A DNA stretch of 64,000 nucleotides from an uncultured virus (IMG/VR IMGVR_UViG_3300028392_000057) (lineage: Duplodnaviria > Heunggongvirae > Uroviricota > Caudoviricetes), in the IMG/VR virus record IMGVR_UViG_3300028392_000057. One strand, written 5' to 3'. Below are positions 16,776 to 43,850 of the stretch, piece after piece (position 1 is the stretch's first letter; each line of letters opens with the position of its first letter). The notes beneath the pieces were generated by a model. That model was not told the origin of the DNA and made no database searches. It saw only the letters and a program-made list of their open reading frames with translations. A program made the position numbers and the translations under genes.

Positions 16776-16849
16776 TGGCATCCCCCGAGGGACTCGAACC
16801 CCCACTAACGGTTTTGGAGACCGCAGTACTGCCATTATACTAGAGAGAC
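16776..16849 (-). tRNA. tRNA-Trp(CCA)
   Basis: Cloverleaf, loop CT-CCA-AA, encoded CCA end. Confidence 0.9.
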
Positions 16850-16854
16850 ATTGT

Positions 16855-17076
16855 TTATAAATTTTTTCTAATACGTTTGAGATATTCTCGTCCAACTAGT
16901 CCAGCTTCAATTTCCATTAATGCAGTTACAGTGGGTCCTGCTTTTGTATTGAGCAATGATTTATGCCCACGCTTTAATTCTCTTACACGTTGTGAGGCAA
17001 TAAGAACTAAATCAAATCGACTACCGACCATGAGTGCGGCTTCTTCACTTGTATATCTTGCTCTGCTTTCAGTCAT
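16855..17076 (-). CDS. rpoZ: DNA-directed RNA polymerase subunit omega
   Basis: ARYT...SRFDLVLIASQRVREL...PTVTALMEIEAG matches the RpoZ consensus. Confidence 0.9.
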   Translation of the reverse strand: MTESRARYTSEEAALMVGSRFDLVLIASQRVRELKRGHKSLLNTKAGPTVTALMEIEAGLVGREYLKRIRKNL

Positions 17077-17101
17077 ATCATCTTTCTATTGTTAAACTTG
17101 G

Positions 17102-17242
17102 TTATCTTGTTACTTTTCTAATCAACTTGTACCAATAGTATTTGAAACCACGAAATACAAGTATATCAAAACTAATTGTAGGATTAACTTCTTTCACAAT
17201 GTGACCGTATGCTCTGTTGATTACATCTTCACTTTTGCTCAT
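17102..17242 (-). CDS. Small hypothetical protein
   Basis: AAGGAG RBS; start trimmed to MSKSEDV. Confidence 0.6.
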   Translation of the reverse strand: MSKSEDVINRAYGHIVKEVNPTISFDILVFRGFKYYWYKLIRKVTR

Positions 17243-17257
17243 AATTACTCCTTTGTT

Positions 17258-17333
17258 TGGTGGGTCGTGAGAGACTCGAACTCCCGACATTCTGCGTGTA
17301 AGGCAGACGCTCTACCAACTGAGCTAACGACCC
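17258..17333 (-). tRNA. tRNA-Val(TAC)
   Basis: Cloverleaf, CT-TAC-AC loop, CCA. Confidence 0.95.
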
Positions 17334-17338
17334 GATAT

Positions 17339-17518
17339 TTAACCACCTTGGTTACTATCTTTAACTTCTGTTTGATTAGCAATTTTTTCAAACGCTTCAT
17401 CTTCATTCTGTTGATCCTCAATAGTTCTTGGATCAGGCTTGCGAAAAATATTGTTCCAGTTGTTGTCAAATGTATTTAAATCAACACTGTATGGTCTTGG
17501 CAAGCTACCTTTAGTCAT
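17339..17518 (-). CDS. Small hypothetical protein, 59 aa (MTKGSLPRPYSVD...)
   Basis: Coupled to the upstream ORF; KGSxPRP motif; absent from the ORF track. Confidence 0.65.
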   Translation of the reverse strand: MTKGSLPRPYSVDLNTFDNNWNNIFRKPDPRTIEDQQNEDEAFEKIANQTEVKDSNQGG

Positions 17519-17682
17519 TTGCTATTATCCTTACGAGAACTTGTACGTGAATTGCTTTTTTCAATCTCTACAAAACTACGAATAAAAGCTCCACGTACAT
17601 GTGCATCACGAATAAGTGTTGCCGCACGTTTAACTGCTTTGGGAAGTTTAACTGCCCGTGAATCATATCCTCTACATGTCAT
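17515..17682 (-). CDS. Small basic hypothetical protein
   Basis: AAGGA RBS; start trimmed to MTCRGYD. Confidence 0.65.
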   Translation of the reverse strand: MTCRGYDSRAVKLPKAVKRAATLIRDAHVRGAFIRSFVEIEKSNSRTSSRKDNSK

Positions 17683-17704
17683 AACATTTCCTTTTAAAAA
17701 ACTA

Positions 17705-17781
17705 TGGTCGGAGTACAAAGATTCGAACTTTGGACCCCCTGGTCCCAAACCAGGTGCGCTACCAGACTGCGCTACACTCCG
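17705..17781 (-). tRNA. tRNA-Pro(TGG)
   Basis: Cloverleaf, TT-TGG-GA loop, CCA. Confidence 0.95.
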
Positions 17782-17785
17782 TAAC

Positions 17786-17860
17786 TGGATGCGGGGGACG
17801 GATTCGCACCGCCGATCTTCAGGTTATGAGCCTGATGAGTTACTACTTCTCTACCCCGCG
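17786..17860 (-). tRNA. tRNA-fMet(CAT), initiator type
   Basis: CGCGGGG start with C1:A72 mismatch, CT-CAT-AA loop. Confidence 0.9.
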
Positions 17861-17866
17861 CTATCT

Positions 17867-17940
17867 TGGTGGAGGATAACAGAATCGAACTGTTACGAAG
17901 ACCTTGCAAAGGTCCCAGGCTCCCATTACATCAATCCCCC
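17867..17940 (-). tRNA. tRNA-Ala(TGC)
   Basis: G3:U70 pair, TT-TGC-AA loop, CCA. Confidence 0.9.
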
Positions 17941-18017
17941 AAACTAAAACATACTAACCATTCTGTTACCACTGTATACCTACAGCTTGTATCCATCTGT
18001 TTAATATGTTTTAGTTT
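17941..18017 (-). ncRNA. Stalk-enclosed RNA element A
   Basis: 17-bp closing duplex filling the whole gap between tRNA-Leu and tRNA-Ala. Confidence 0.6.
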
Positions 18018-18093
18018 GGTGCCCTAGGAGAGACTCGAACTCTCAGCTTACGGCTTCTAAGACCGCTGTGTCTACCAATTTCACCACCAGGGC
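18017..18093 (-). tRNA. tRNA-Leu(TAG), short variable arm
   Basis: CT-TAG-AA loop, 77 nt, CCA. Confidence 0.9.
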
Positions 18094-18101
18094 ATTTTAC
18101 T

Positions 18102-18130
18102 ATTATAACAAAAAACTATTTATCTGTCAA
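18102..18130 (-). promoter_or_regulatory. Sigma70-type promoter inside the tRNA array
   Basis: TTGACA-17 nt-TATAAT. Confidence 0.85.
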
Positions 18131-18158
18131 TACTATTGGTCAACAACTAAATATATAT

Positions 18159-18719
18159 ATGATTACATCCGAACAACTATATGAGTTAAACTTACCGGCA
18201 TTCAGTGAGGTAACATTGCCTTCCTTTAAGGGATTTGATGATGACCATTTACCATTTAATTATATGAGACTAGATAGAATCGATCATATTTTTAAACCAG
18301 AATATATTAATCTTTTGGGTTTAAATTGGTGTAAACTAAGTTATTTTAAAAAAACAGATTTCAAAGGAGCATTGCATTCAGATGCAATAGTTCCTGAAGA
18401 TTTTATGTTTGGCATTAATTGGATAGACGGTGGTACAGGTGTACTAGAATTTTATGACCATGATGAGGTTGAAGTAGATGGAATTACTGGTGGGGCTTTA
18501 AATAAAGATAACTGGGGAGTAGTTACAAAATACAAACCTATACTTACTCCTAGCAAACAGTATGATACAAACAACAATAAGGCATACTTAGTAAATGCTT
18601 CTACAATACACCGAGCAATTGGAATTGGACCAAGAAAATGTTACAGCCTTCGAACTAATGACAGACGTATAGCATGGGATGATATCGTTAAACTTTTTTC
18701 TAACCTTATTATACGATAA
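18159..18719 (+). CDS. Putative Fe(II)/2OG oxygenase- or cupin-like protein
   Basis: GALHSD...IHRAIG...RKCYSLR (HxD...H...R pattern). Confidence 0.5.
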   Translation: MITSEQLYELNLPAFSEVTLPSFKGFDDDHLPFNYMRLDRIDHIFKPEYINLLGLNWCKLSYFKKTDFKGALHSDAIVPEDFMFGINWIDGGTGVLEFYDHDEVEVDGITGGALNKDNWGVVTKYKPILTPSKQYDTNNNKAYLVNASTIHRAIGIGPRKCYSLRTNDRRIAWDDIVKLFSNLIIR

Positions 18720-18722
18720 TTT

Positions 18723-18796
18723 TGGAGCGGGGTAGGAGAATCGAACTCCTTTGACTAGCTTGGAAGGCTAGGACACAACCAATATGCCAACCCCGC
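18723..18796 (-). tRNA. tRNA-Gly(TCC)
   Basis: CT-TCC-AA loop, U73, CCA. Confidence 0.95.
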
Positions 18797-18804
18797 ATAT
18801 ATTC

Positions 18805-18880
18805 TGGAGTAGGTGACAGGGATCGAACCTGCATAGCACGGATTTGCAATCCGCTACCTAACCATTCGGTACACACCTAC
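18805..18880 (-). tRNA. tRNA-Cys(GCA)
   Basis: TT-GCA-AA loop, U73, CCA. Confidence 0.9.
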
Positions 18881-18883
18881 ATA

Positions 18884-18974
18884 AAAGCATATTGAAACAC
18901 ACTAACTACCTTGGTATGTACTAAGGTTCAATGAACCGATACGACCCTATCTTTAATGTATTTCAATATGCTCT
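18884..18974 (-). ncRNA. Stalk-enclosed RNA element B
   Basis: 22-bp closing duplex whose G:U pairs work only on the minus strand. Confidence 0.6.
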
Positions 18975-19168
18975 GCATCCCCCGGCGGTAATTATAGAGT
19001 ATCAAGATATGACGCTATCATACCCATCACACACTCCTTCCACCCGCTTCCCGACAGGGACCGTTCTCGCATTGCTAGCGGCCTTTAGGTTTAAAGACTA
19101 CCACCCGTACATGTCACTGTACTTCTCATCGTGTGGGTCACACTATCCGAAGACACCCGGAACGTTCG
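18975..19168 (-). ncRNA. Structured ncRNA candidate of unknown class (~190 nt)
   Basis: GC-rich non-coding segment with several complementary arms (GGTGGTAGT/ATTACCGCC, GTCTTT/AAAGGC, CCGCT/AGCGG). Confidence 0.6.
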
Positions 19169-19203
19169 GTATAAATACAGTCTTAAACATAAGACTGTAT
19201 TAA

Positions 19204-19812
19204 ATGATTTATACTTTGCAATTACCTAAACCATCTGATAACTTAATTAACTTAGTTAAATCAGTCGCTCTAGATCGACCAATAAATGTTAGTTCTAGAA
19301 ATTGGCACAGTTCAATACAAGGTCCTGATATTAACTGTGCCGCTGGTGATTTTTTTTCTAACGACAGTATTAATCTCATAGCTACACAAGAATTCCAGCC
19401 ATTGTTTAAGCATAAACTATATGCAACAATTGGTGTTATACATAATATAAATCCTATAGAATTTGCATCATATCCACCACACTCTGATAGAGTGCGAACA
19501 GCAAGTATAAATTTTTATATTGAGTTAGGTGGAGATAATGTTAGCACTATCTTTTATGATAAAGAAGATTTAGCAAGTGATACTGTAGGAGGAAATGTAC
19601 TTACATATAAAGAGGTATCTGCACAACAAGAATATTTTTTTAATACTGGTACTTGGTATCTAATGAATAGCAGAAACTTTCACAGTGTGGAAAATATCAA
19701 AACCACACGAATTATTTTCGGGTTATCATTCTTAAATATTAGCATTGAAGAATTACTAAAAAGTTTGGCGGAGAGTGTGGGATTCGAACCCACGCACCGT
19801 TATTCACAGTGA
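19204..19812 (+). CDS. Putative Fe(II)/2OG oxygenase- or cupin-like protein
   Basis: YPPHSD...FHSVEN...TRIIFGL; TATAAATA upstream; 3' end overlaps tRNA-Ser antisense. Confidence 0.55.
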   Translation: MIYTLQLPKPSDNLINLVKSVALDRPINVSSRNWHSSIQGPDINCAAGDFFSNDSINLIATQEFQPLFKHKLYATIGVIHNINPIEFASYPPHSDRVRTASINFYIELGGDNVSTIFYDKEDLASDTVGGNVLTYKEVSAQQEYFFNTGTWYLMNSRNFHSVENIKTTRIIFGLSFLNISIEELLKSLAESVGFEPTHRYSQ

Positions 19813-19854
19813 CAGATTAGCAATCTGCTGGTTTAACCACTCACCCAACTCTCC
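19766..19854 (-). tRNA. tRNA-Ser(GCT)
   Basis: Long variable arm, TT-GCT-AA loop, G73, CCA. Confidence 0.95.
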
Positions 19855-19862
19855 TAAATACA

Positions 19863-19939
19863 TGGTACCCCCGCTGGGATTTGAACCCAGAAAAACGGCT
19901 TATGAGGCCGGCATTATAACCTGATTTAATTAAAGGGGC
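19863..19939 (-). tRNA. tRNA with CAT anticodon (Ile2/lysidine type or Met)
   Basis: CT-CAT-AA loop, GCCCC acceptor stem, CCA; imperfect stems. Confidence 0.75.
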
Positions 19940-19948
19940 ATCATTCTT

Positions 19949-20033
19949 TGGTGCGGGCACCCGGACTCGAACCGGGATGCACAAGGCGATAGATTTTAAG
20001 TCTATTGGGTCTAACCAATTTCCCCATGCCCGC
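19949..20033 (-). tRNA. tRNA-Leu(TAA)
   Basis: CT-TAA-AA loop, variable arm, CCA. Confidence 0.95.
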
Positions 20034-20050
20034 ATTTATAAACAATCTGT

Positions 20051-20079
20051 ATTATATATCAAATAGTTTTTGTTGTCAA
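20051..20079 (-). promoter_or_regulatory. Sigma70-type promoter inside the tRNA array
   Basis: TTGACA-17 nt-TATAAT. Confidence 0.85.
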
Positions 20080-20085
20080 ATATTT

Positions 20086-20160
20086 TGGCGGTCCCAGCGG
20101 GTAACGATCCCGCTCCTCATGCGTGACAGGCATGTATGCGTCCGTGAACACTTTGAGACC
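20086..20160 (-). tRNA. tRNA-Asp(GTC), atypical T-loop
   Basis: CT-GTC-AC loop, G73, CCA; T-loop ATCGTTA. Confidence 0.85.
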
Positions 20161-20165
20161 AATAT

Positions 20166-20250
20166 TGGTGGAGATTACTGGGATTGAACCAGTCGTGCCA
20201 TAAGGCGGCGGATTTACAATCCACTGCATCACCATTGATGCTTCATCTCC
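20166..20250 (-). tRNA. tRNA-Tyr(GTA)
   Basis: TT-GTA-AA loop, variable arm, CCA. Confidence 0.9.
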
Positions 20251-20255
20251 AAAAT

Positions 20256-20456
20256 TAGTATAAGCTACTTGTTTCCACGCCAGCCCTTAATTGAGCGGTT
20301 ACTCTGTCCATCTCATTTATTCAAAGTCTGTGTGCAGTTGAGATTCTGCCTATCAGAGCCTGCGAGGGTATTTTTAATCCTCACGCTAACGGTTTTCTGC
20401 CACCGGATCTCTGTCGCTAATCAAACGCTATTTTAACGAAAATAGTAACGGGATAC
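20256..20456 (-). ncRNA. Structured ncRNA candidate of unknown class (~200 nt)
   Basis: Fills the gap between tRNA-Glu and tRNA-Tyr; hairpins CTATTTT/AAAATAG and GCGTGAGG/CCCTCGC; ATCTCA/TGAGAT pairing. Confidence 0.6.
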
Positions 20457-20532
20457 TGGAGCTCGGTACGGGATTCGAACCCGTGTGAATGCCGTGAAAG
20501 GGCACTATCCTAGGCCGCTAGATGAACCGAGC
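20457..20532 (-). tRNA. tRNA-Glu(TTC)
   Basis: CT-TTC-AC loop, CCA. Confidence 0.9.
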
Positions 20533-20540
20533 CAAATATT

Positions 20541-20660
20541 ATTAGTTTTGCTGACGCACTGTTTGCTATGTCTCAACGGAATTGGTGGCCACACTACCGT
20601 TTATATACATAGTTACTCAGGGTTGACGTTTCCCCCATGGCTTACATCAGCAAAACTAAT
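20541..20660 (-). ncRNA. Structured ncRNA candidate (120 nt) with 18-bp closing stem
   Basis: ATTAGTTTTGCTGATGTA...TGCGTCAGCAAAACTAAT. Confidence 0.6.
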
Positions 20661-20665
20661 AACAC

Positions 20666-20900
20666 ACTATATGAAAACACATTATGGGAACTACATTCGT
20701 CTGTCCAGGACCGTCTCCTGTACCCCGGCTTGTACACCGGGAACTCTGAACTTCGTCATTACTGCCTAACTGCCCGTCACGTTCATAACTTTCGTTATCA
20801 TACGCTTCCTGATGTATGTCTCGGCGTGTATCCGTCGATACCCTTATAACCTTCGTACATCCTAACGGATCAGGTAACCCTTAATATGTTTACATATAGT
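20666..20900 (-). ncRNA. Stalk-enclosed RNA element C (~235 nt, internally structured)
   Basis: 19-bp closing duplex; internal hairpins ATAACGAAAGTTAT, CCCGG-TGTACAAG-CCGGG, CAGGA/TCCTG. Confidence 0.65.
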
Positions 20901-20936
20901 CCCTGTAACTTGTACAGGGCTATATGATAACTTAAC

Positions 20937-20948
20937 TTTTTAAAGAAC
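20937..20948 (-). promoter_or_regulatory. boxA-like antitermination element
   Basis: GTTCTTTAAAAA about 40 nt downstream of the promoter at 20989-21017. Confidence 0.55.
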
Positions 20949-20988
20949 TTTGTTGATTAGTACGATGACTTTTTCAACTCATGCTATG

Positions 20989-21017
20989 ATTGTATCACAA
21001 TCACCATTTATTGTCAA
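20989..21017 (-). promoter_or_regulatory. Sigma70-type promoter
   Basis: TTGACA-17 nt-TACAAT. Confidence 0.8.
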
Positions 21018-21070
21018 ATTCTTTTTTGTGTCTCTGTGTCCAAGAACTTGTTCAATCAATCTATACATAG

Positions 21071-21099
21071 AGTATAGCACTATTTGGATTTATTGTCAA
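21071..21099 (-). promoter_or_regulatory. Sigma70-type promoter (tandem with the 20989 promoter)
   Basis: TTGACA-17 nt-TATACT. Confidence 0.75.
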
Positions 21100-21128
21100 A
21101 CTATTAGTTGTTGTAAATAAACAACATT

Positions 21129-21203
21129 TGGTCCGGGGTACAGGAATCGAACCTGTATTGACTGCTTAGAAGGCAGCTGTATTATCCATTATACTAACCC
21201 CAG
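21129..21203 (-). tRNA. tRNA-Arg(TCT)
   Basis: CT-TCT-AA loop, CCA. Confidence 0.9.
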
Positions 21204-21224
21204 ATAGATTTTTGGCTTGTCTAT

Positions 21225-21253
21225 ATTATAGCAGAATACTCATTTAGTGTCAA
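21225..21253 (-). promoter_or_regulatory. Sigma70-type promoter
   Basis: TTGACA-17 nt-TATAAT with TG extension. Confidence 0.85.
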
Positions 21254-21256
21254 GCC

Positions 21257-22435
21257 CTACATCTTCTGACGATACCATTTACGGACAACACCCTCAGCGA
21301 TCTTACCTCGTATATCTTCACTATACGGTGAATTTAAATGCCTTGGCAATGTATAATTGCTAGGAAAATTGTTATAACTGTCAATGCTCATTCCCAAAAA
21401 CCAATTGCCCATGTTGTAACTCAATACCGTAAATAGTGCTTCATATTCATCGGCTTGCTCCTGTTCGTCCGTTACTAAATTAATTAGGTTGTTGTATATA
21501 TTATCAGGATCAATATTGTCTCCGTCAAAACTGTGAATTGCCATATCAGCTATCCAAATTGGTTTTTTATATTTTTGATTAACTAATTCAAAAAACTTAA
21601 TAGTGTCTACACCATTTGTATTATTTTTCCAACCTGCAATCAAATCAGCAACTGTTGGATTATTTGAATTAGTTAAGTATTTAGGAAACCATCCTACACC
21701 AATAATATCCAATTTACTTAATATAGTCTCACCAACCATATCAACCTGATTTTTTCCATTGTAGTACATTCCATTTGAATATATTACAGTGGTTAATTGT
21801 CCTTTATATACCTTGCGTATTTCTGTAATGAGATTTAACCAACCATTTTGATTTTTAACATCATACGTTAGATGTTGAACCTCATCTCCTATAATTACAA
21901 ATCTATCCACAGATCCTTGCTGTGCTATATTTGCTATTCTTGACATACTACTAGTATGGTTAGATATCCATTCGTCAAAATTAGAAGGTGATGAATGAAC
22001 AGTACTTAACAAATTGGTAACGTTTGTATTTTTATGTACAAAAGGGTAAACTGTTATAGTTAAACCTGCCGCTTTAAGCTTTCGAAAGAATGTTAGCAAA
22101 TCATTGTCACTTGGATTAAAGTTAATATTTGAATTAGGACTATTAGAAGATGGGGTATCGTAATACCCTGCACTAATCGTTACTTTAACATCATTAGCAC
22201 CCAATGCTTTAATGTTTTTAATATGGTCATCAATGTTAGTCCATCCGGGTAGTCCTAACAGGCTATCACTATTTAAAACCATGTTTACACTTTTAATAGC
22301 AAACTTGTTTTTTATATTGTTATCTATAATTTGAGGATATGCTTCAATGATAGGTGTAGTTGGTTGACCACCTCCGCCACCGCATCCTACAAGTATGATT
22401 GCTAATATCGTACTAGCAATAGAATTAATTCTCAT
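21257..22435 (-). CDS. Lipoprotein, GH113-like TIM-barrel glycoside hydrolase
   Basis: Lipobox ILVGC followed by GGGGG; IIGDEV, LITEIRKVYKGQLT and EQEQADEYEALF motifs. Confidence 0.65.
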   Translation of the reverse strand: MRINSIASTILAIILVGCGGGGGQPTTPIIEAYPQIIDNNIKNKFAIKSVNMVLNSDSLLGLPGWTNIDDHIKNIKALGANDVKVTISAGYYDTPSSNSPNSNINFNPSDNDLLTFFRKLKAAGLTITVYPFVHKNTNVTNLLSTVHSSPSNFDEWISNHTSSMSRIANIAQQGSVDRFVIIGDEVQHLTYDVKNQNGWLNLITEIRKVYKGQLTTVIYSNGMYYNGKNQVDMVGETILSKLDIIGVGWFPKYLTNSNNPTVADLIAGWKNNTNGVDTIKFFELVNQKYKKPIWIADMAIHSFDGDNIDPDNIYNNLINLVTDEQEQADEYEALFTVLSYNMGNWFLGMSIDSYNNFPSNYTLPRHLNSPYSEDIRGKIAEGVVRKWYRQKM

Positions 22436-22557
22436 GGAAAACTCCGTATTTAATGATGTGTTTTTTATACAAATAATCAGCGGGTTTTATTATAAACATA
22501 CCTGCTAAATCAATCTATACATATATTATAGTACCGATTGAATTTATTGTCAAATTT

Positions 22558-22612
22558 TGGTCTATAGTACAAAAATAGAACCTGTATTGATTGCTTAGAA
22601 GGCTAACCCCAG
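22558..22612 (-). pseudogene. Degenerate tRNA-Arg(TCT) copy
   Basis: AACCTGTATTGAttGCTTAGAAGGC and CTAACCCCAGATA match 21129-21206, with the D-arm deleted. Confidence 0.75.
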
Positions 22613-22624
22613 ATAAATAGTCGT

Positions 22625-23206
22625 ATGGAAAACAACACCTTATACGATGAACTAGAATTACCCAAAAATTGTACTCCCGATGATATCAAACAAAAATATA
22701 GAATACTAGCACAAACACATCATCCCGATAAAGGTGGTGATATAGAAAAATTTAAACGAATCAAATTAGCATATGAAACATTAAGTGATCCTGTTAAACG
22801 TGAACACTATGATAGTACCGGAGATCATTATGATGATACCAATCTTGATGCTGAAGTTTATGCAAGACTTTCAAATATGGTATCACAATACAGTCAACAG
22901 ATAAATCCAGAATTTGACGATTTAATTTTACAAATGAAGTTTGACATACATCATGCACAAAATCAAACCAATACTGCTATAGTAGATTGTAACGCTCTAA
23001 TAACAAAATTGAACATTGTTGCAAAAAAAATCAAATTAAAAAAAGAGGGTGATAATATATTAAAATCTTTTGTTGAGAAAAAAATAAACATTCATCATAC
23101 TGAACTGGTAAATCATAAAAGAGCCTTAATAGTTTTTTCACGAATGTTAGAAATATTAGAAGATTACCATTATAGTCATAGTGACTGGCAACTTCTAATT
23201 CAATGA
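22625..23206 (+). CDS. DnaJ-domain (J-domain) protein
   Basis: LYDELEL...HHPDKGGD...AYETLSDPVKREHYD. Confidence 0.9.
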   Translation: MENNTLYDELELPKNCTPDDIKQKYRILAQTHHPDKGGDIEKFKRIKLAYETLSDPVKREHYDSTGDHYDDTNLDAEVYARLSNMVSQYSQQINPEFDDLILQMKFDIHHAQNQTNTAIVDCNALITKLNIVAKKIKLKKEGDNILKSFVEKKINIHHTELVNHKRALIVFSRMLEILEDYHYSHSDWQLLIQ

Positions 23207-23281
23207 TGGTCCGGCGTGCAGGAATCGAACCCACATTCATCGGGTAGAAGCCGATTGTATTATCCATTATACTAACGCCAG
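23207..23281 (-). tRNA. tRNA-Arg(TCT), second copy
   Basis: ATCGG-CTTCTAC-CCGAT anticodon arm, CCA. Confidence 0.85.
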
Positions 23282-23292
23282 CTACTTTGTTG

Positions 23293-23892
23293 TCAATAAC
23301 TTTGACCGTTTTTGTATCGCTCTCGGCGCGAATGTCTACCCTTACCTTTATTTTTTGCTTTGTATGTTGGGGTTTGGCTATGACAATTTGGGCATAATAA
23401 ACATAAATTTTCAGGAGTATTATTATCACTGTTTCCGTCTCTATGCTCAAGCTCTAATGTTATATTTTTTCCATTCCACTCAGCGATACCGCATTCAGCA
23501 CATTTACTATCCTGTTGTTCTTTGATATGCCGGCGAACAGCAGATAATCCCGTTATTGTTTCCCTTGCAATCCATTTTCTAATAGTTTCTGCTGATTGAA
23601 AATCTTGCTGACAACGAACCGAACAATATTTACTATTTTTTCCAATTAGCTTACTACATTGAGGACAACTATTAGTTGAAACAATTAATCTTTTTGTATT
23701 ATTATGTGATGCAGAGCAAGATGAATTACAAAATTTTTTATATCTACCCTCATAATTAATGAGTGCATTACAATGCCCACATTTTTTTGGGTTAGACAGA
23801 TATGCTTCTATATTTGCTTGCTTTTTTTTTGCTGTAATTAGTGCAGAAACTTCTGCGCCTAATTTACCTGCTTGTGATTTGCTCATTTTCAT
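23293..23892 (-). CDS. HNH homing endonuclease
   Basis: LELEHRDGNSDNNTPENLCLLCPNCHSQT; Zn-finger repeats. Confidence 0.9.
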   Translation of the reverse strand: MKMSKSQAGKLGAEVSALITAKKKQANIEAYLSNPKKCGHCNALINYEGRYKKFCNSSCSASHNNTKRLIVSTNSCPQCSKLIGKNSKYCSVRCQQDFQSAETIRKWIARETITGLSAVRRHIKEQQDSKCAECGIAEWNGKNITLELEHRDGNSDNNTPENLCLLCPNCHSQTPTYKAKNKGKGRHSRRERYKNGQSY

Positions 23893-23949
23893 AGTTGAAC
23901 TTTCTTGTATACTAGTATTTAGTCCTCAACTCTAAAAACAGCATTTATT

Positions 23950-24023
23950 TGGTGCCCCACGACAGAATTGAACTGCCATCACAGGATTACAAAACCAGTG
24001 TACTACCATTGTACTAGTAGGGC
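23950..24023 (-). tRNA. tRNA-Thr(TGT)
   Basis: TT-TGT-AA loop, CCA; mismatched anticodon stem. Confidence 0.85.
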
Positions 24024-24030
24024 GGAAATT

Positions 24031-24106
24031 TGGCTCCTTGAACACGGTTCGAACGTGTGACCCAAGCATTAACAGTGCTTTGCTCTACCGACTGAGCTAT
24101 CAAGGA
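24031..24106 (-). tRNA. tRNA-Asn(GTT)
   Basis: CT-GTT-AA loop, G73, CCA. Confidence 0.95.
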
Positions 24107-24135
24107 ATATGTATTTTATTTAATAATATTGTACA

Positions 24136-24696
24136 CTAACTTAATAATATTCTACTATGTTTTGGAACACCTGCTAACAAATATTCCATTTGGTCAGCAA
24201 GTATAGTTCTATGTTGTAGTATCATATTTTCGTAGTGATTTGGGACATAAGGTGCGTATAATAATTCCATACGTACTTCTTTTAAACTCTTATGTCCTTT
24301 TTTACTGTTACAAGTTTTACAACTGGTAACCACGTTCATCCAAGTGTTTTCACCACCCTTACTTCTAGGGACAATGTGGTCACGACTTAATAGATGATAA
24401 TTGGGAAACTGTTCACCGCAATAAGCACATACATGTCTATCACGACCGAACAATGTTTTATTAGTTAGTGCTACACATGAGTGTTTATATGGATTGAATC
24501 CATGACCTTTGATGGCAATAATGCTACTAGCTTCTAAGTAACTTAATGTGCCGTCATTTTGTGTGCCACCTCGATATCTAGCCACAATGTTCCCCATTGA
24601 CCATGCAATGGCATCTTTTGCTTTATAGGTAATTGCGTCATCATTTGATATCCATTGCCGGGGAACTCCCGAGATATCTAGTGCTAGAACAGCCAT
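24136..24696 (-). CDS. HNH endonuclease (McrA-like)
   Basis: LFGRDRHVCAYCG...DHIVPRSKGG...NVVTSCKTCNSKKG; start trimmed to the Met after AAGGAG. Confidence 0.9.
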   Translation of the reverse strand: MAVLALDISGVPRQWISNDDAITYKAKDAIAWSMGNIVARYRGGTQNDGTLSYLEASSIIAIKGHGFNPYKHSCVALTNKTLFGRDRHVCAYCGEQFPNYHLLSRDHIVPRSKGGENTWMNVVTSCKTCNSKKGHKSLKEVRMELLYAPYVPNHYENMILQHRTILADQMEYLLAGVPKHSRILLS

Positions 24697-24744
24697 GTAG
24701 TACTCCTTTTCTGTTATTATCACTAATTGTATTTAATCACTTGT

Positions 24745-24819
24745 TGGCGGGTCCTGCAGGAATTGAACCCACATCCCGAAGTTCGAAGCATCGTATTCTA
24801 TCCATTGAACTAAGGACCC
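24745..24819 (-). tRNA. tRNA-Arg(TCG)
   Basis: CT-TCG-AA loop, CCA. Confidence 0.85.
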
Positions 24820-24825
24820 AATAAA

Positions 24826-24978
24826 GGTGGGAGCCTAACTATCTTATTGTTAATAAGCCTCATTAGATTGTCTCGTATAGGCAAGTTTATACTACCCGTC
24901 AATCATACTATAGTGTCATCACAGTTAACCCCACTGTGATTAGATTGACAGGGACTTAAACCTATCGTCTATCCCATA
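24826..24978 (-). ncRNA. Structured ncRNA candidate (~150 nt)
   Basis: Nested arms TGGGA/TCCCA, ATAGG/CCTAT, TGTCAATC/GATTGACG, ATCACAGT/ACTGTGAT. Confidence 0.6.
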
Positions 24979-24983
24979 AACAG

Positions 24984-25538
24984 TTAATTTTCAAGTAAAT
25001 AAATAGGGTCTTTGTCAAAAGCTAATGATAGTGTAATTCTAGGCACAGGATTATCTATGGGTAAATACACACTATGCAATACTTTTGTTCTTAACACCGT
25101 CGCTTGTTTTATTTCTACTCTATCAACTAATACTAGATTTTCATACTTATCAGCCATGAAACAGAATCTCCCACCACCATCTGGATTAACATATCTTGGA
25201 GATTCAGTGTCACTAGTATAAAAATTAGTATATGTGTCTTGACAATTTAGTAATGGTAAATTTACTCTGGCGTGTGAAGGGTAAGCGTCAATATGAGGTC
25301 TACTGTGTTTAGGTAAATACATTACATAGACTGCTGCCATTATAATTTTTAAGTCATGTTTTTGAAATGCCAATTGAAGTTCGGGGCATACCTTCATTAA
25401 CATTTCTAAATCAAGATAATACCAATTAGTATTTGCCAACGATCTAGTATAGGCTCTATCGACTGTTTTTACGTATGCTAAACATTTATTTATAATGGTA
25501 GCAAAATAATCTATTTCTAATGGTTTATAATAAATCAT
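24984..25538 (-). CDS. Putative Fe(II)/2OG oxygenase- or cupin-like protein
   Basis: SRPHID...LHSVY...PRITLSL; start trimmed to MIYYKPL. Confidence 0.55.
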   Translation of the reverse strand: MIYYKPLEIDYFATIINKCLAYVKTVDRAYTRSLANTNWYYLDLEMLMKVCPELQLAFQKHDLKIIMAAVYVMYLPKHSRPHIDAYPSHARVNLPLLNCQDTYTNFYTSDTESPRYVNPDGGGRFCFMADKYENLVLVDRVEIKQATVLRTKVLHSVYLPIDNPVPRITLSLAFDKDPIYLLEN

Positions 25539-25552
25539 TCTATATTTATCAC

Positions 25553-25627
25553 TGGCACCCCCTGATGGATTCGAACCACCGAATGTCGGAATCAAAATCC
25601 GAGGCCTTACCGCTTGGCGAAGGGGGT
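25553..25627 (-). tRNA. tRNA-Gln(TTG)
   Basis: TT-TTG-AT loop, CCA. Confidence 0.95.
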
Positions 25628-25632
25628 ATAAA

Positions 25633-25709
25633 TGGTAGCCTCACTCTGACTCGAACAGAGGACCTATGCGTTATCAACACATTGCTCTAACCAACTGAGC
25701 TATGAGGCT
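25633..25709 (-). tRNA. tRNA-Ile(GAT)
   Basis: TT-GAT-AA loop, CCA. Confidence 0.95.
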
Positions 25710-25713
25710 GTAA

Positions 25714-25788
25714 TGGTGGATGTAAGTAGATTTGAACTACTGACCTATTCCGTATGAAGGAATTGCACTACCGCTGTGCTATACATCC
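25714..25788 (-). tRNA. tRNA-Met(CAT), elongator type
   Basis: TT-CAT-AC loop, paired G1:C72, CCA. Confidence 0.85.
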
Positions 25789-25789
25789 T

Positions 25790-25866
25790 TGGGGTGCTTG
25801 ATGGGATTCGAACCCACGTATATCGGAATCACAATCCGAGGTCTTAACCGCTTGACGACAAGCACC
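25790..25866 (-). tRNA. tRNA-His(GTG)
   Basis: TT-GTG-AT loop, G-1:C73, CCA. Confidence 0.95.
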
Positions 25867-25867
25867 A

Positions 25868-25957
25868 TGGTAGAAACGGTGAGATTCGAACTCACGGACC
25901 CTTTCGGATCGACAGTTTTCAAGACTGTTGCAATAGGCCGGACTCTGCCACGTTTCC
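25868..25957 (-). tRNA. tRNA-Ser(TGA)
   Basis: CT-TGA-AA loop, long variable arm, CCA. Confidence 0.95.
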
Positions 25958-26143
25958 TTAGGCTTTTTTATCTATTTGATTATTATAATGTGTAGGCTCT
26001 AATTTACCTACTTTATCGTATAGATACTGTACAACCTCTAAGTATTGCTTATTAGTTGCAGGATCTTCTAATGTTTTATAAACTGTTGTGCGATATTGAT
26101 GATTGGTAATATCGTTTACTGCTGATATGGTTTGAATTATCAT
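25958..26143 (-). CDS. Small hypothetical protein
   Basis: Start trimmed to MIIQTISAV; TATAAATA just upstream. Confidence 0.55.
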   Translation of the reverse strand: MIIQTISAVNDITNHQYRTTVYKTLEDPATNKQYLEVVQYLYDKVGKLEPTHYNNQIDKKA

Positions 26144-26156
26144 GCAGTATTTATAC

Positions 26157-26233
26157 TGGTGGAAGCAGAGGGATTCGAACCCTCGACTCACGGATTAAAA
26201 GTCCGTTACTCTAGCCAACTGAGTTATGCTTCC
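26157..26233 (-). tRNA. tRNA-Lys(TTT)
   Basis: CT-TTT-AA loop, CCA. Confidence 0.95.
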
Positions 26234-26239
26234 ATATAT

Positions 26240-26316
26240 TGGTGCGACCGGAGAAATTCGAATTCCCGACTCCTAAGTTCGTAGCCTAGTACTCTATCCA
26301 TCTGAGTTACGGTCGC
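26240..26316 (-). tRNA. tRNA-Arg(ACG)
   Basis: CT-ACG-AA loop, CCA. Confidence 0.95.
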
Positions 26317-26403
26317 ATTCTAAAACACACCTAGTACTCCCTGATCTAATGGGTCTAGCGTTTTCAGCTAATATTGTTTTTCACTAGGTATATTTTAGAA
26401 TGC
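26315..26403 (-). ncRNA. Stalk-enclosed RNA element D
   Basis: 21-bp closing duplex with two G:U pairs, abutting the tRNA-Arg 5' end. Confidence 0.6.
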
Positions 26404-26548
26404 CGTGTATCTCTACACGACATGGTAGGGTTAATACCCTACCCAGTAGTCTTACTAACATGTTGTCTCCATGCTTTCATGTGTACTGTCCGCCCATTCG
26501 ATACATTTAACGCTGTATTCCGGCTCTCGTTGCCTATTCACGCTGTCA
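26401..26548 (-). ncRNA. Structured ncRNA candidate (~150 nt)
   Basis: Hairpins GGTAGGG-TATTAA-CCCTACC, TGTCGTGTA-GAGA-TACACGGCA, CATG-AAAG-CATG. Confidence 0.55.
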
Positions 26549-26716
26549 TCAATCAGTATAAGTTAGTCGGTTGACTTTCTTAACAGCCTCTTGATAGACT
26601 TTAGCACGGTCGATCTTATTTTGTATCAACTGTGCTACTTGCTCCTTCGTCAGAACATGATTGCTAAACCAATCACGCTTTGTTTCAGTAGTTTTGTATT
26701 GTATCTCTTTATCCAT
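26549..26716 (-). CDS. Small protein, 55 aa (MDKEIQYKTTETKRDWFSNHVLTKEQVAQLIQNKIDRAKVYQEAVKKVNRLTYTD)
   Basis: GAGAGGA RBS; first ORF after the attenuator terminator; absent from the ORF track. Confidence 0.65.
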   Translation of the reverse strand: MDKEIQYKTTETKRDWFSNHVLTKEQVAQLIQNKIDRAKVYQEAVKKVNRLTYTD

Positions 26717-26736: not shown

Positions 26737-26777
26737 TAAAAGCAAAAACCCCTGAGATTTCTTAGTTCCCAGGGGTT
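26737..26777 (-). terminator. Intrinsic terminator of the leader (attenuator)
   Basis: ACCCCTGGGA-ACTAAGAAA-TCTCAGGGGT followed by TTTTGCTTTT. Confidence 0.85.
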
Positions 26778-26805
26778 AGATAAAAGTAGTTATGATGTTA
26801 ACTTG

Positions 26806-26943
26806 TTACCTAGTCCCCGGGCTTATCTCTTGGTTATCATTTGAGCCACGAATACTTGATGGATATGCTGGCACAAAGGATGCACTGGCTAACGTTAGCC
26901 ACTGTCCGATATGTTTCAGCATGTTACAAGGTTTATTCATCAT
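26806..26943 (-). CDS. Putative attenuator leader peptide, 45 aa, containing all 20 amino acids
   Basis: MMNKPCNMLKHIGQWLTLASASFVPAYPSSIRGSNDNQEISPGTR*; lies between promoter and terminator; last codons complementary to the terminator 5' arm. Confidence 0.75.
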   Translation of the reverse strand: MMNKPCNMLKHIGQWLTLASASFVPAYPSSIRGSNDNQEISPGTR

Positions 26944-26978
26944 AGTTTTTATTTAGTCCTGTTCTTCAACTAATATGT

Positions 26979-40560: not shown

Positions 40561-41577
40561 TTATAATTTACAAGCTTCGCAATCTTCTTCATCCATATCA
40601 TTAAAGCCACTTGGCAAATCTAATACAGTTTCATCTTGGCTCTTACTACCTGCTTTGTTAATCAAGCTATAGTAGAATGTCTTTAGTCCCCAATAATGAG
40701 CTTGCATTAAGTTCTTAGCAATCAATGTTGTTGGAACTTTACGTTCAGGGAAATGTGCAGGGTTATAGAATGTGTTAGTACTTATACTTTGGTCAACATA
40801 GGCTGCAATCACTGCCGCTGTTTTTAAGTAACCATCACAATCTTTTTGATCCCACATCAATTGATATTTGTTTTTCAACTTATGATATTCGGGAACAACT
40901 TGTACAAAACTTCCTGCCTTGCTTTCTTTAACACTTATCAAACTCATTGGCAACTCAATACCATTGGTACTGTTAATTACCACTGAACTAGATTCTACAG
41001 GAGCAACGGCCATTTGTGTAGCATTACGGACACCATAACTACGCATCATAGCACGTAGTCCTTCCCAATTAAGTTCTGGATCAAAGTTAGTTAATTCGTT
41101 TACACCTTTAGCACGTAGTTCCCAGGGAAAGATGCCTTGCCCATAACGTGTTTTATCGCTATGTTCACAACGACCACGCTCTTGTGCTAGTTCCACACTT
41201 GCTTCAGTTAAATAGAAGGATAAGTGTTCCATCCACGTCTTGACTTCAGCCAATGCGTCTTTTTCTCCGTACTTGAGACTTCGCTTGGCGTGCCAGTAGG
41301 CAAGATTAGTGATTCCAATTCCAAGAGGTCTGATTTCATCGTTTGATAGTTTAGATTGAATGGATAGAAAGTCTTGATAGTCAAGAATGTTATTGAGGCT
41401 ACGATGCAATATGCGGCAAGCACGGCGCATGTCTTCTGGGTTACGGAACGCACCCCAATTTATTGACCCGAGAGTACAGAGGGCCACCCTCCCCTCAACT
41501 TCGTCAACCTCATAATAATCATATTCGTCATCTAATTCTTCAGGTAGATATTCTATTTCTTCGTATAGTTTGTTCAT
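40561..41577 (-). CDS. nrdA: Ribonucleotide reductase alpha subunit, C-terminal fragment
   Basis: EGRVALCTLGSINW, GLKTFYY, terminal CEACKL; novel acidic N-terminal head. Confidence 0.95.
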   Translation of the reverse strand: MNKLYEEIEYLPEELDDEYDYYEVDEVEGRVALCTLGSINWGAFRNPEDMRRACRILHRSLNNILDYQDFLSIQSKLSNDEIRPLGIGITNLAYWHAKRSLKYGEKDALAEVKTWMEHLSFYLTEASVELAQERGRCEHSDKTRYGQGIFPWELRAKGVNELTNFDPELNWEGLRAMMRSYGVRNATQMAVAPVESSSVVINSTNGIELPMSLISVKESKAGSFVQVVPEYHKLKNKYQLMWDQKDCDGYLKTAAVIAAYVDQSISTNTFYNPAHFPERKVPTTLIAKNLMQAHYWGLKTFYYSLINKAGSKSQDETVLDLPSGFNDMDEEDCEACKL

Positions 41578-42329
41578 AATGTTCTGCCTTTTTTGTATGT
41601 CATGTTCTCTTTCAGGAACTTTTCTAAATCTTTTTCATTAAGTTTAATATTTTTAATGCCGTTTGTTGCCCAGCGATGTCTTGAGGTTGCTGATGATAAT
41701 TGTTTGCGATGGTCTTCGCTTCTATAGTAAGGATCATACTTAACTAGCACATCTAACTTTTTGTTTACTTCTTCTACTAGTTGTTTAAATCCATTGTCAA
41801 TCCTATTTTTTAAAATCATTTGACTAACACCTAACTTTTCCTTAAGGACTGCTTCAATTTCTTTTCTAAGCAAGTAACCTCCTTGCTTATTGTTTTCTAT
41901 ACAAAACTGATACACTACATCTATTAGCATCTCTTTGGTAATACTGGGTTTAGCATTACTATTATTCATTCCGGTTGAATTAAACGACTTTAACTTACGG
42001 TGCTCTATCATCTTTTCTTCTGTATATTTTTCAAGGGTATTTCCACCATCTCCGCCCCGAGTCATATTGTATCCGTTTTTGAAGGTATCTAACTTTTCAA
42101 CGAATGTTTCTTCTAACTTTTTGGCTTCATCTTTGGTGTATACTTCTGCTAACACATCTGAAACGATGTTCTCATATCCATACTTATTGATAGCACGATG
42201 GAAATGTCTATCACTTCCTTCTAATGCTTCGCCGATATGATCCTGTAATCGTTCTTCCATTGTTTTACCTGTATATCCTATGTATTTCTTGCCATTTAAT
42301 GTGTGACAATAGACAATATATTTCTTCAT
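41574..42329 (-). mobile_element. GIY-YIG homing endonuclease gene inserted in nrdA
   Basis: YIVYCH...KYIGYT, RLQDH, NGYNMTRGGDGG. Confidence 0.9.
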
Positions 42330-42377
42330 AAAAATTATTTCCTCTAGTCTTATTTATGCTTGAAATACTATTACCTA

Positions 42378-43850
42378 CTATTTTATCTTCCTAATCTTAA
42401 CTATGTCTGTGGGTTTAGTTTTCATAAACTCATCAACATTGGACTTTTTAACCCGAATCAATTTTCTAGTCGGATCGATCTTCTTAAAACTCTTTGTCGG
42501 CAAAAGTACCTCTAAGCAAAGGTTGGATTGATAAATTGTATGATATTCAGGATCAAATGGTCCTTGACTCATAACATTGTCAACGAACACTAAGTAGATA
42601 CGCCCTGTATCTGTTCGTTCTTTAAGAATGCCACTCTTGAATACTTCTTCAGCACTCATTGTTTTCTTTCTTAAGTCTTTACGTTTTTCATATTTAACAT
42701 ATAGTTCTTCAAATAATTCAGTATTACTATAGAATGCTTGATATAAGTCTGGCACTTCATTTGGATCAAAGAATGTTATTTGTTCTTTATTTTTAAATCT
42801 TCTCCAGAAGAATGCACTAAGAACAACCCCATAGTCCATGAACCTGACACGTGTTTCATCGGTTCCTTGATTGTTTTTAAGTACGATAAGGTCATCAAAC
42901 TGATGATGCCAAATGGGATAAAATACAGTAGCACTTGCATTACGAATACCTCCTTGACTGCAACTTCTTAAGTCTCCGAACCATTTCTTTAAGAATGGTA
43001 TCATGCCGGTGTGCATTATTTCGCCACCACGAATAGGACTACCCAATGAACGTAGTCTACCAATTTCTAAACCAATACCAGCACGTTTGCTGGCATACTT
43101 TGCCATCATTTCCCCGGATGCGAAAATACTGTCCAAATCATCATCCGAGCGAATAAGAACGCAACTACTAAATTGTTTAGTAGGCGTTCCCAAGCCGGCA
43201 AGTACGGGGGTTGCAAGTGTGAATAATCCGTCACTGGCTGCTGTATAGTATTCTTTAATGTATCGCATTCTTGCACTGTTTGGTTCTTCACTATGGAAGA
43301 CTGTTGCGGCTGCAACCATGTATCTAATTTGTGGCGTTTCATATATTTCTTTCGTACTACGATTCTTTACTAAGTATTTTTCAATCAATTGTTCAATGGC
43401 GGCATAACTATAACTTTCGTCTTTAGAATGATCCAACATGTCATTCATCTTGTTCCAATCTTCTTCATTATACCATGACAATAGTTCATCAGTATAAAGA
43501 CCGGTCTCTACATTCTTTTTAACTATTTCATAGAGATGCGGCACATTATAGCTACCATATACATCCTTCCTCAACATACTGACACGTTGTTTACCTGCTA
43601 CGTATTGATAGTTTGTATGACCTATATCAGTATTATTTTCTACATCAATCAAGTCAACGATAGCACGTAGTGTAATCTCATCAATTTCGGTAGTGGTGAT
43701 GCCATCATAGAAGTGTAGTTGTGATTTTATTTCTATCATTGAAGGGCTAACGTCTGCTATTCCCTTACATACTTTTGCTACTTGCGCTTGCCATTTTTCC
43801 AGAGTAAGCGGCTCTTTTATACCAGAGCGTTTGGTGACGTTAATTTTCAT
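42378..43850 (-). CDS. nrdA: Ribonucleotide reductase alpha subunit, N-terminal fragment
   Basis: ATP-cone VTKRSG, FSSCVL, SQGGIR, QSNLCLE; novel basic C-terminal tail. Confidence 0.95.
   Translation of the reverse strand: MKINVTKRSGIKEPLTLEKWQAQVAKVCKGIADVSPSMIEIKSQLHFYDGITTTEIDEITLRAIVDLIDVENNTDIGHTNYQYVAGKQRVSMLRKDVYGSYNVPHLYEIVKKNVETGLYTDELLSWYNEEDWNKMNDMLDHSKDESYSYAAIEQLIEKYLVKNRSTKEIYETPQIRYMVAAATVFHSEEPNSARMRYIKEYYTAASDGLFTLATPVLAGLGTPTKQFSSCVLIRSDDDLDSIFASGEMMAKYASKRAGIGLEIGRLRSLGSPIRGGEIMHTGMIPFLKKWFGDLRSCSQGGIRNASATVFYPIWHHQFDDLIVLKNNQGTDETRVRFMDYGVVLSAFFWRRFKNKEQITFFDPNEVPDLYQAFYSNTELFEELYVKYEKRKDLRKKTMSAEEVFKSGILKERTDTGRIYLVFVDNVMSQGPFDPEYHTIYQSNLCLEVLLPTKSFKKIDPTRKLIRVKKSNVDEFMKTKPTDIVKIRKIK

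Follow-up and report, generated by a model that had tools for sequence, protein, structure and literature searches.

The tRNA array of this virus contains long duplexes that close around sequences with nothing visible in common, and the question is what such elements do between tRNA genes. The window analysed here (64,000 nucleotides, nt) is the first 64 kb of a 78-kb record of an uncultured member of the Caudoviricetes (IMG/VR IMGVR_UViG_3300028392_000057), and the nearest relatives of the virus have complete records that are about 350 kb long or longer. Five such duplexes, here called stalks A to E, each enclosing a loop sequence (the cargo), lie within the array (Table 1). They occupy one strand, are spread through related arrays, match the boxes of RNase III substrates, and enclose cargoes that are conserved within families and swapped between sites. 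From these features it appears likely that host RNase III processes the stalks and releases the cargo as small RNAs.

An earlier note, written from the sequence alone, had described stalks A to D on the tRNA (minus) strand with a shared core, AAAYAYAY...RTRTGTTT; folding confirmed all four where it had placed them, and the core is common to them. On the minus strand stalks A, B and D fold at -27.5, -36.3 and -34.2 kcal/mol (z -7.2, -8.3 and -7.6), compared with -17.3, -25.5 and -26.1 kcal/mol on the plus strand, and stalk C has a z-score of -2.8. Stalk A proved to be real but longer than first given (19 base pairs, bp, at 17939-18019, not 17 bp at 17941-18017), because the CCA of tRNA-Leu pairs with the first bases of tRNA-Ala, and a fifth stalk, E (20536-20665), had been missed. 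Read by eye, E is the same RNase III site in flipped orientation; this type is represented by 18 distinct examples with three cargo lengths, and E itself is kept in 22 of 202 loci. Between 16500 and 27500 there are four uninterrupted stalks of at least 17 bp (A, B, D and E), compared with a mean of 0.175 and a maximum of 1 in 40 block shuffles; C falls outside this count because a U·U mismatch breaks its duplex. That nearly all differences between the arms read as G:U on the minus strand holds for A, B and D (1, 3 and 3 G:U pairs), while the arms of C show, by eye, one G:U pair and the U·U mismatch. The loops of A to D were assigned to four separate sequence clusters, in keeping with the lack of visible similarity reported before; the cargoes of A and B nevertheless share a fold, both forming rods with purine-rich internal loops.

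The stalk is not peculiar to this record. A first pattern, built without tRNA information, retrieved 122 viral loci, in which 93 matches lay on the same strand as a tRNA within 1 kb, 0 on the opposite strand, and 33 had no tRNA. A second pattern occurs in an estimated 650 viral stretches; in 124 loci it gave 97 matches on the tRNA strand, 0 on the opposite strand, 22 matching both strands and 5 without a tRNA. In 185,579 cellular genomes the second pattern was found in 5 stretches (4 small contigs), all in tRNA clusters; these contigs belong to metagenome-assembled genomes (MAGs) and look like mis-binned phage. Related arrays were also fetched through the neighbouring HNH gene (24136-24723, minus strand), whose protein is tightly tied to such arrays: 78 of the 80 loci have at least three tRNAs. 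The motif is far from absent there, since 74 of these 78 arrays carry at least one stalk (mean 3.6, up to 17 per locus). Searches of cultured phages with C/E, A and one tandem array as queries gave only tRNA or chance matches. The units often stand in tandem, many without a tRNA between them. Between some of the tandem stalks stand other RNAs that have structure, are in part tRNA-like and end in ACCA (L200:18790-20420, L182:3950-6570, L187:4770-5590), and one stalk of L200 encloses a tRNA-like gene.

The consensus of the family is about CCAUAUURAAACACAUUA...UAGUGUGUUUYAAUAUGG, from an arm profile that left out loci with fewer than three tRNAs (58 of 203). An opposite-strand control with this profile was uninformative (449 versus 431 matches), the profile being nearly palindromic; G:U pairs and the asymmetric patterns served to judge strand instead. 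This strand asymmetry bears on the idea that the units are mobile DNA with terminal inverted repeats, similar to miniature inverted-repeat transposable elements (MITEs) or attC sites, which have captured their interiors. Inverted repeats with variable interiors, multicopy and tandem occurrence, and exchange of cargo in place (in run X23 a 40-letter insert replaces cargo C within the same stalk) would all suit such elements. However, the strict orientation with the tRNAs (93:0 and 97:0), the U·G wobble kept on the tRNA strand together with the G:U excess there, and the confinement to tRNA arrays (about 650 viral stretches versus 5 in the cellular genomes) had already disfavoured mobile DNA, which we regard as extremely improbable.

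The stalks instead resemble sites of RNase III. A register scan against the Escherichia coli consensus (WNAGWGNNCWUNNN^NAWGNNCWCUNW, as quoted in PMC4357697) gave a single fit, at 0.76 of the informative positions (next best 0.55), with the cut after left-arm base 7 and right-arm base 14; shuffled or randomised consensuses reached 0.76 in 0.6-0.8% of 20,000 trials (p about 0.007). According to PMC1540722, the optimal distal box is U-A followed by U·G, and one set of boxes suffices. Among 309 distinct arm pairs the distal box has U-A in 268, U·G in 181 and both in 168, with the more stable C-G instead in 81; within the window, A and B have U-A/U·G and C has U-A/U-A. The outer proximal box, which was not part of the seed, has the optimal pair at its four positions in 198 (G-C), 302 (A-U/U-A), 297 (A-U) and 302 (A-U/U-A) of the arm pairs, and antideterminant pairs at positions -4 to -6, -11 and -12 (pair orientation as read here) total 20 in 309. 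With 17-23 bp, of which 11-12 bp lie on the cargo side of the predicted cut, the stalks also provide a helix of at least 11 bp with one proximal and distal box set. The arms contain 486 G:U pairs and 144 A·C mismatches, and a single position beside the cut accounts for 87 of these mismatches. Within the duplex, conservation is lowest on either side of the cut, and 39% have a mismatch at position 8. In 13 units retrieved by the cargo-A pattern alone, the distal box keeps U-A in 13 and U·G in 12, and the outer pairs vary with compensation. The G:U bias is explained by the retention of U-A/U·G in the distal box, the pairs to which RNase III binds best.

Single-register fit and box pairs together support the earlier suggestion of RNase III-type stalks, and by their sequence the stalks qualify as predicted substrates of an E. 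coli-type RNase III. Natural selection appears to have converged on the site that was defined in vitro, U·G wobble included. A phage RNase III gene was not found in any of five related complete records, which implies the host enzyme. The notion of a constant handle needs amendment: the stalk is conserved, but the core is not a separate handle, being the cargo-side half of the predicted site that would stay on the released RNA.

We propose that a host sigma-70 polymerase transcribes the tRNA array and that RNase III would then cut both strands of each stalk at the two positions given above, leaving 2-nt 3' overhangs. The upstream tRNA would be left with its CCA followed by about 4 nt, which exonucleases would trim, and the tRNA downstream would receive a short leader for RNase P, exonucleases and RNase P being the enzymes that finish tRNAs in bacteria. 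The cargo would leave clamped by the 11-12-bp helix formed by the core, with both ends protected. The same cuts would split the phage tRNA transcript and turn the enclosed, exchangeable RNA into a stable small RNA (predicted products in Table 1). As the sequence requirements of the site are confined to the stem, it could accommodate any folded RNA.

The cargo is variable within a constant stalk, as had been proposed, and it swaps in place. The 479 distinct units form 260 lenient cargo clusters, a number that overcounts the true families, and 169 of these are singletons. After tRNA-Lys(TTT) alone, 71 cargo clusters are represented among 89 units; 23 of 120 clusters are found behind at least two different tRNAs, and the slot between tRNA-Leu and tRNA-Ala holds A in the window and a B-type cargo in locus L118. 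Each of cargoes A to D is conserved. A pattern drawn from cargo A only found 16 loci, 14 of them scored as enclosed and the other two having a stalk with an indel, and one drawn from cargo B only found 42 loci, 40 of them enclosed and the other two lost to contig ends. In cargo A the unpaired segments are invariant, and the stalk varies with compensation. Cargo C is a multi-stem RNA of about 200 nt with invariant junctions and a helix that covaries (pairing holds in 224 of 252 cells, compared with a mean of 164 and a maximum of 187 after shuffling).

The 5' motif of cargo C occurs in 120 loci: 55 in a standard stalk, 38 with the C core outside such a stalk, and 27 that are chance or truncated matches. 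For the 38, a complete lack of any stalk was considered and rejected, since 35 show a different long closing helix (by a lenient duplex measure). Of these 38 loci, 21 have the RNA behind its own promoter, and a tRNA is nearby in 5, compared with 47 of the 55 inside a stalk. Own promoter, alternative closing helix and scarcity of tRNAs together argue, at the level of sequence, that cargo C is an independent gene, which seems to need a closing helix wherever it is placed. In L295, L313, L342, L350 and related loci, a sigma-70-type promoter of its own precedes the cargo-C homologue, which is followed by another promoter match and a protein gene; most of these homologues are remote from tRNAs, and their closing helix is of the different kind.

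These observations also bear on whether the cargo is filler. Arms often start exactly at the tRNA CCA (of 348 distinct units, 106 have a left arm that begins within it) and stop at the beginning of a tRNA (with a 2-nt overlap in 48 units); many clusters are singletons and some cargoes resemble tRNA remnants. All this would suit stalks that only separate tRNAs and a cargo that is discarded, like the intervening sequences (IVS) excised from 23S rRNA (PMC8708148). Against such a role stand the loci with up to 17 units, many in tandem with no tRNA between them, the invariance of the unpaired segments of cargo A while its stalk varies with compensation, and cargo C, which covaries and occurs away from tRNAs behind its own promoter; a mere separator with filler is therefore unlikely.

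A constant handle with a variable insert might equally suggest antisense guides against host or phage RNAs, in the style of CRISPR or small-RNA arrays, and a 13-nt stretch of cargo C perfectly matches the phage tRNA-Arg(TCT) on its 3' side. Complementarity of the loops to phage RNAs, raised in the earlier note, was not borne out in the 78-kb contig, where the longest matches of A to E are 11-13 nt and lie within the shuffled range of 10-15 nt. Moreover, the matching segment of C lies within an insertion that most C homologues lack, conservation follows the fold, and the repeats are inverted pairs and not the direct repeats of a CRISPR-like array, so guide function is highly doubtful.

As to what released cargoes might do, a folded protein decoy against host RNA-binding or RNA-cutting defence proteins is a possibility that we put forward tentatively, on account of the rapid turnover of cargoes, the conservation of their folds and the tRNA T-loop motifs that some of them contain; it is the weakest step of the explanation. 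An enrichment of T-loop motifs was seen in a minority of cargoes (21 of 253 representatives versus 2.9). No enrichment in cargo was seen for CsrA-type ANGGA, Shine-Dalgarno (SD), anti-SD or sarcin-ricin-like motifs, and the potential for H-type pseudoknots, as in type III antitoxins, is marginal (6 of 200 versus 2.6 +/- 1.4, maximum 6). Rfam 15 (GOLLD, ROOL, tmRNA, Y RNA, type III antitoxins and others) gave nothing on A to E at the gathering score or at E<=5, and on the stalk cargoes of L182 and L200 nothing except one tRNA-like match. Identification of cargoes as 4.5S RNA, parts of group I or II introns, RNase P or Y RNA was dropped, as no model matched. The boldest extension would be a plug-in library of hundreds of small RNAs, excised by RNase III and in part sealed into circles, which serve as long-lived anti-defence decoys and turn over in an arms race like anti-CRISPR genes; taken as a whole it is improbable, yet worth stating.

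RNA-library contigs bear on the ends that cutting would create. In a lake RNA run (X4) one contig corresponds, without any difference, to 20686-20878, i.e., the cargo between the C arms, and ends in adapter-like letters. A 233-nt contig from a freshwater RNA run (X2) represents a relative of C in circularly permuted order: it runs from 20783 to 20752, through 60 undisplayed letters, and from 20891 to 20861, so that its 3' part comes first. When it is aligned with C homologues, its two ends share about 30 letters, which is what a closed cycle of about 203 nt would give with an assembly word length of 31. Among the 13 homologues with both anchors, the junction holds 15 arm letters in 7 (the ones that share the middle of the contig), 13 in 3 and 16 in 1, and the remaining 2, in which there is an insertion, do not accommodate the 60 letters. 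The number called for by the predicted RNase III product is 15, and the ends of the X2 molecule would lie within about 2 nt of the predicted cuts. In DNA collections the junction form gave 30 metagenome and 2 viral pattern matches, none of them cargo C. The contig is either a true circle or the product of a reverse-transcriptase jump between adjacent ends, template switching being a known artefact of reverse transcription (PMC5888575); both need discrete ends at the predicted place. An Rnl2-type or RtcB ligase was not found in five of five related records, and a search of related records for T4 Rnl1, run with no positive control, found none, which favours the artefact or a host ligase. One joined contig implies discrete RNA ends within the stalk, and other contigs cross stalks uncut.

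Several points weigh against processing by RNase III and must be set beside it. The evidence from sequencing runs consists of assembled contigs, not raw reads, from five of 23 listed runs, and contig depth cannot rank expression. The joined contig is a single one, from one run and from a relative, with 60 letters of its junction undisplayed. Some contigs of relatives read through a whole stalk without a break, A in X2 (17914-18022) and D in X1 (26271-26410), and one X4 contig runs through the left arm of C; such contigs may be precursors or DNA. The distal box of D is C-G/C-G and not the optimal pair. The inner proximal box is weaker than the outer one, being optimal in 31, 303, 261 and 130 of 309 arm pairs, with G-C at position 1 in only the 31, and at position 4 a G-C/C-G pair, a catalytic antideterminant, occurs in 57 of 309, stalk B of the window included. 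Part of the conservation is built in, the arm profile having been seeded on the core, and the boxes are those of E. coli and may not be the host's. On the cargo side, cargo alone folds only modestly better than its shuffles (mean z -0.66), and the T-loop motif is restricted to the 21 of 253 representatives given above.

Some of these points would suit a stalk that is never cut and stays in the mature RNA, serving either to bind RNase III or some other double-strand-binding protein or simply to insulate folding: contigs cross the stalks, and many stalks have a mismatch or a G-C pair next to the predicted inner cut, where such a pair can block cleavage without blocking binding (PMC1540722). However, the tRNA CCA, and sometimes the first bases of the next tRNA, are paired in the stalk and must be freed, and the joined contig implies ends inside the stem. 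We therefore consider an uncut stalk unlikely, and processing by host RNase III with release of the cargo remains the probable course.

Table 1. Stalks, predicted RNase III products and other non-coding features of the tRNA array (positions in the window)
Feature	Position	Strand	Remarks
Stalk A	17939..18019	-	19 bp; from CCA of tRNA-Leu(TAG) to first two bases of tRNA-Ala; cargo 43 nt
Stalk B	18884..18974	-	22 bp; between RNA F and tRNA-Cys; cargo 47 nt
Stalk C	20666..20900	-	U·U mismatch beside predicted cut; multi-stem cargo of ~195 nt, a widespread uncatalogued family
Stalk D	26315..26403	-	22 bp; between RNA H and tRNA-Arg(ACG); cargo 45 nt
Stalk E	20536..20665	-	23 bp; cargo 84 nt; ends 3 nt before tRNA-Glu
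Predicted released RNA, A	18012 to 17944	-	69 nt
Predicted released RNA, B	18964 to 18892	-	73 nt
Predicted released RNA, C	20892 to 20672	-	221 nt
Predicted released RNA, D	26396 to 26320	-	77 nt
Predicted product, E	20648 to 20551	-	
tRNA array	16776..26316	-	25 tRNAs by ARAGORN and one at 20169-20250 by Rfam only; all on the minus strand
Two sigma-70-type promoter matches	20989..21099	-	just upstream of C
Perfect sigma-70-type promoter match	18102..18130	-	upstream of tRNA-Leu and stalk A
Conserved structured RNA F	18976..19175	-	3' end enters left arm of B; 35 of 202 loci
Conserved structured RNA H	26404..26550	-	3' end enters left arm of D; 39 of 202 loci
Conserved non-coding stretch I	24822-24982	-	44 of 202 loci
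Conserved non-coding stretch J	26770-26945	-	38 of 202 loci; behind the first promoter, overlaps a 45-codon open reading frame (ORF)

The surroundings of the stalks are rich in other RNAs and in genes of their own. Eight sigma-70-type promoter matches at 11/12 or 12/12 lie between 16500 and 27500, all on the minus strand. RNA F precedes B in 14 of 15 distinct B units, and RNAs F, H, I and J have no Rfam match. A further conserved RNA of about 200 nt, G (20250-20456, minus strand; 31 of 202 loci), lies between tRNA-Glu and the tRNA at 20169-20250; relatives of G provide the deepest RNA-library contigs of the region, with a flat contig depth that is no measure of expression. A decayed copy of tRNA-Arg(TCT) at 22551-22603 (minus strand) has its own perfect promoter match and is 81% like the copy at 21129-21203. 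Of 10 related arrays scanned, 4 carry GOLLD RNA, and permuted tmRNA matches occur in 2 loci (the loci named being L182, L052, L145, L008 and L010). Among protein genes, a phage copy of the RNA polymerase omega subunit (Pfam PF01192; 416 relatives) lies inside the array at 16855-17076 (minus strand), and three genes run antisense within it (18159-18719, 19204-19812 and 22625-23206, plus strand), one with a DnaJ domain. Farther away, the large subunit of ribonucleotide reductase (40561-43850, minus strand) consists of two ORFs around a GIY-YIG endonuclease gene, which suggests an intron or homing element; a scan of the window with Rfam gave no intron match.

If the stalk works as proposed, it marks the predicted ends of several hundred uncatalogued phage RNAs and offers a search handle where sequence comparison fails. 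The question of non-tRNA RNAs in phage tRNA clusters (T4 RNAC/RNAD, GOLLD) thereby becomes directly testable, and the stalk itself would be a natural cassette for obtaining several stable RNAs from one transcript.

Literature searches found no published description of this stalk. RNase III is known to have a role in the processing of T4 tRNAs. Like the proposed released cargoes, the T4 RNAs RNAC and RNAD are small and stable, have no known role and are transcribed from the tRNA region of a phage (PMC3014915 and PMC9697503), but they are two fixed RNAs, and no shared sequence was seen in the search of cultured phages with A, C/E and the tandem array. GOLLD and ROOL are likewise structured phage RNAs near tRNA islands (10.1101/2024.12.08.627333); unlike the cargoes, they are large single families and not cassettes, and A to E match neither. 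In six supplementary files of PMC10690425 (10,006 viral candidate RNAs), the portion of that source covered here, the stalk motifs were absent; files 1, 2 and 4 lie outside that portion and may hold the stalk or its cargoes. While stalk and cargoes are thus absent from Rfam and from the literature found, their proposed way of working, like that of RNase III duplexes in rRNA operons and of T7 sites, is known. The IVS of 23S rRNA are variable inserts on a stem that RNase III excises (PMC8708148), but they interrupt a mature RNA, whereas the stalks occupy intergenic positions and several of the cargoes are themselves conserved RNAs. At the RNase III sites of phage T7, e.g., R1.1, the host enzyme acts on a phage polycistron through the same box pairs; according to PMC1540722 and PMC8708148, however, these are short hairpins between mRNAs (R1.1 being a 49-nt stem) from which no enclosed RNA is released. 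A further likeness is to bacterial rRNA operons, where, according to PMC8708148, long duplexes flanking 16S and 23S rRNA in a tRNA-containing polycistron are cut by RNase III to release a functional RNA; the phage stalk differs in being multicopy and closed in sequence, in abutting the tRNA CCA, and in enclosing hundreds of unrelated RNAs of 30-250 nt.

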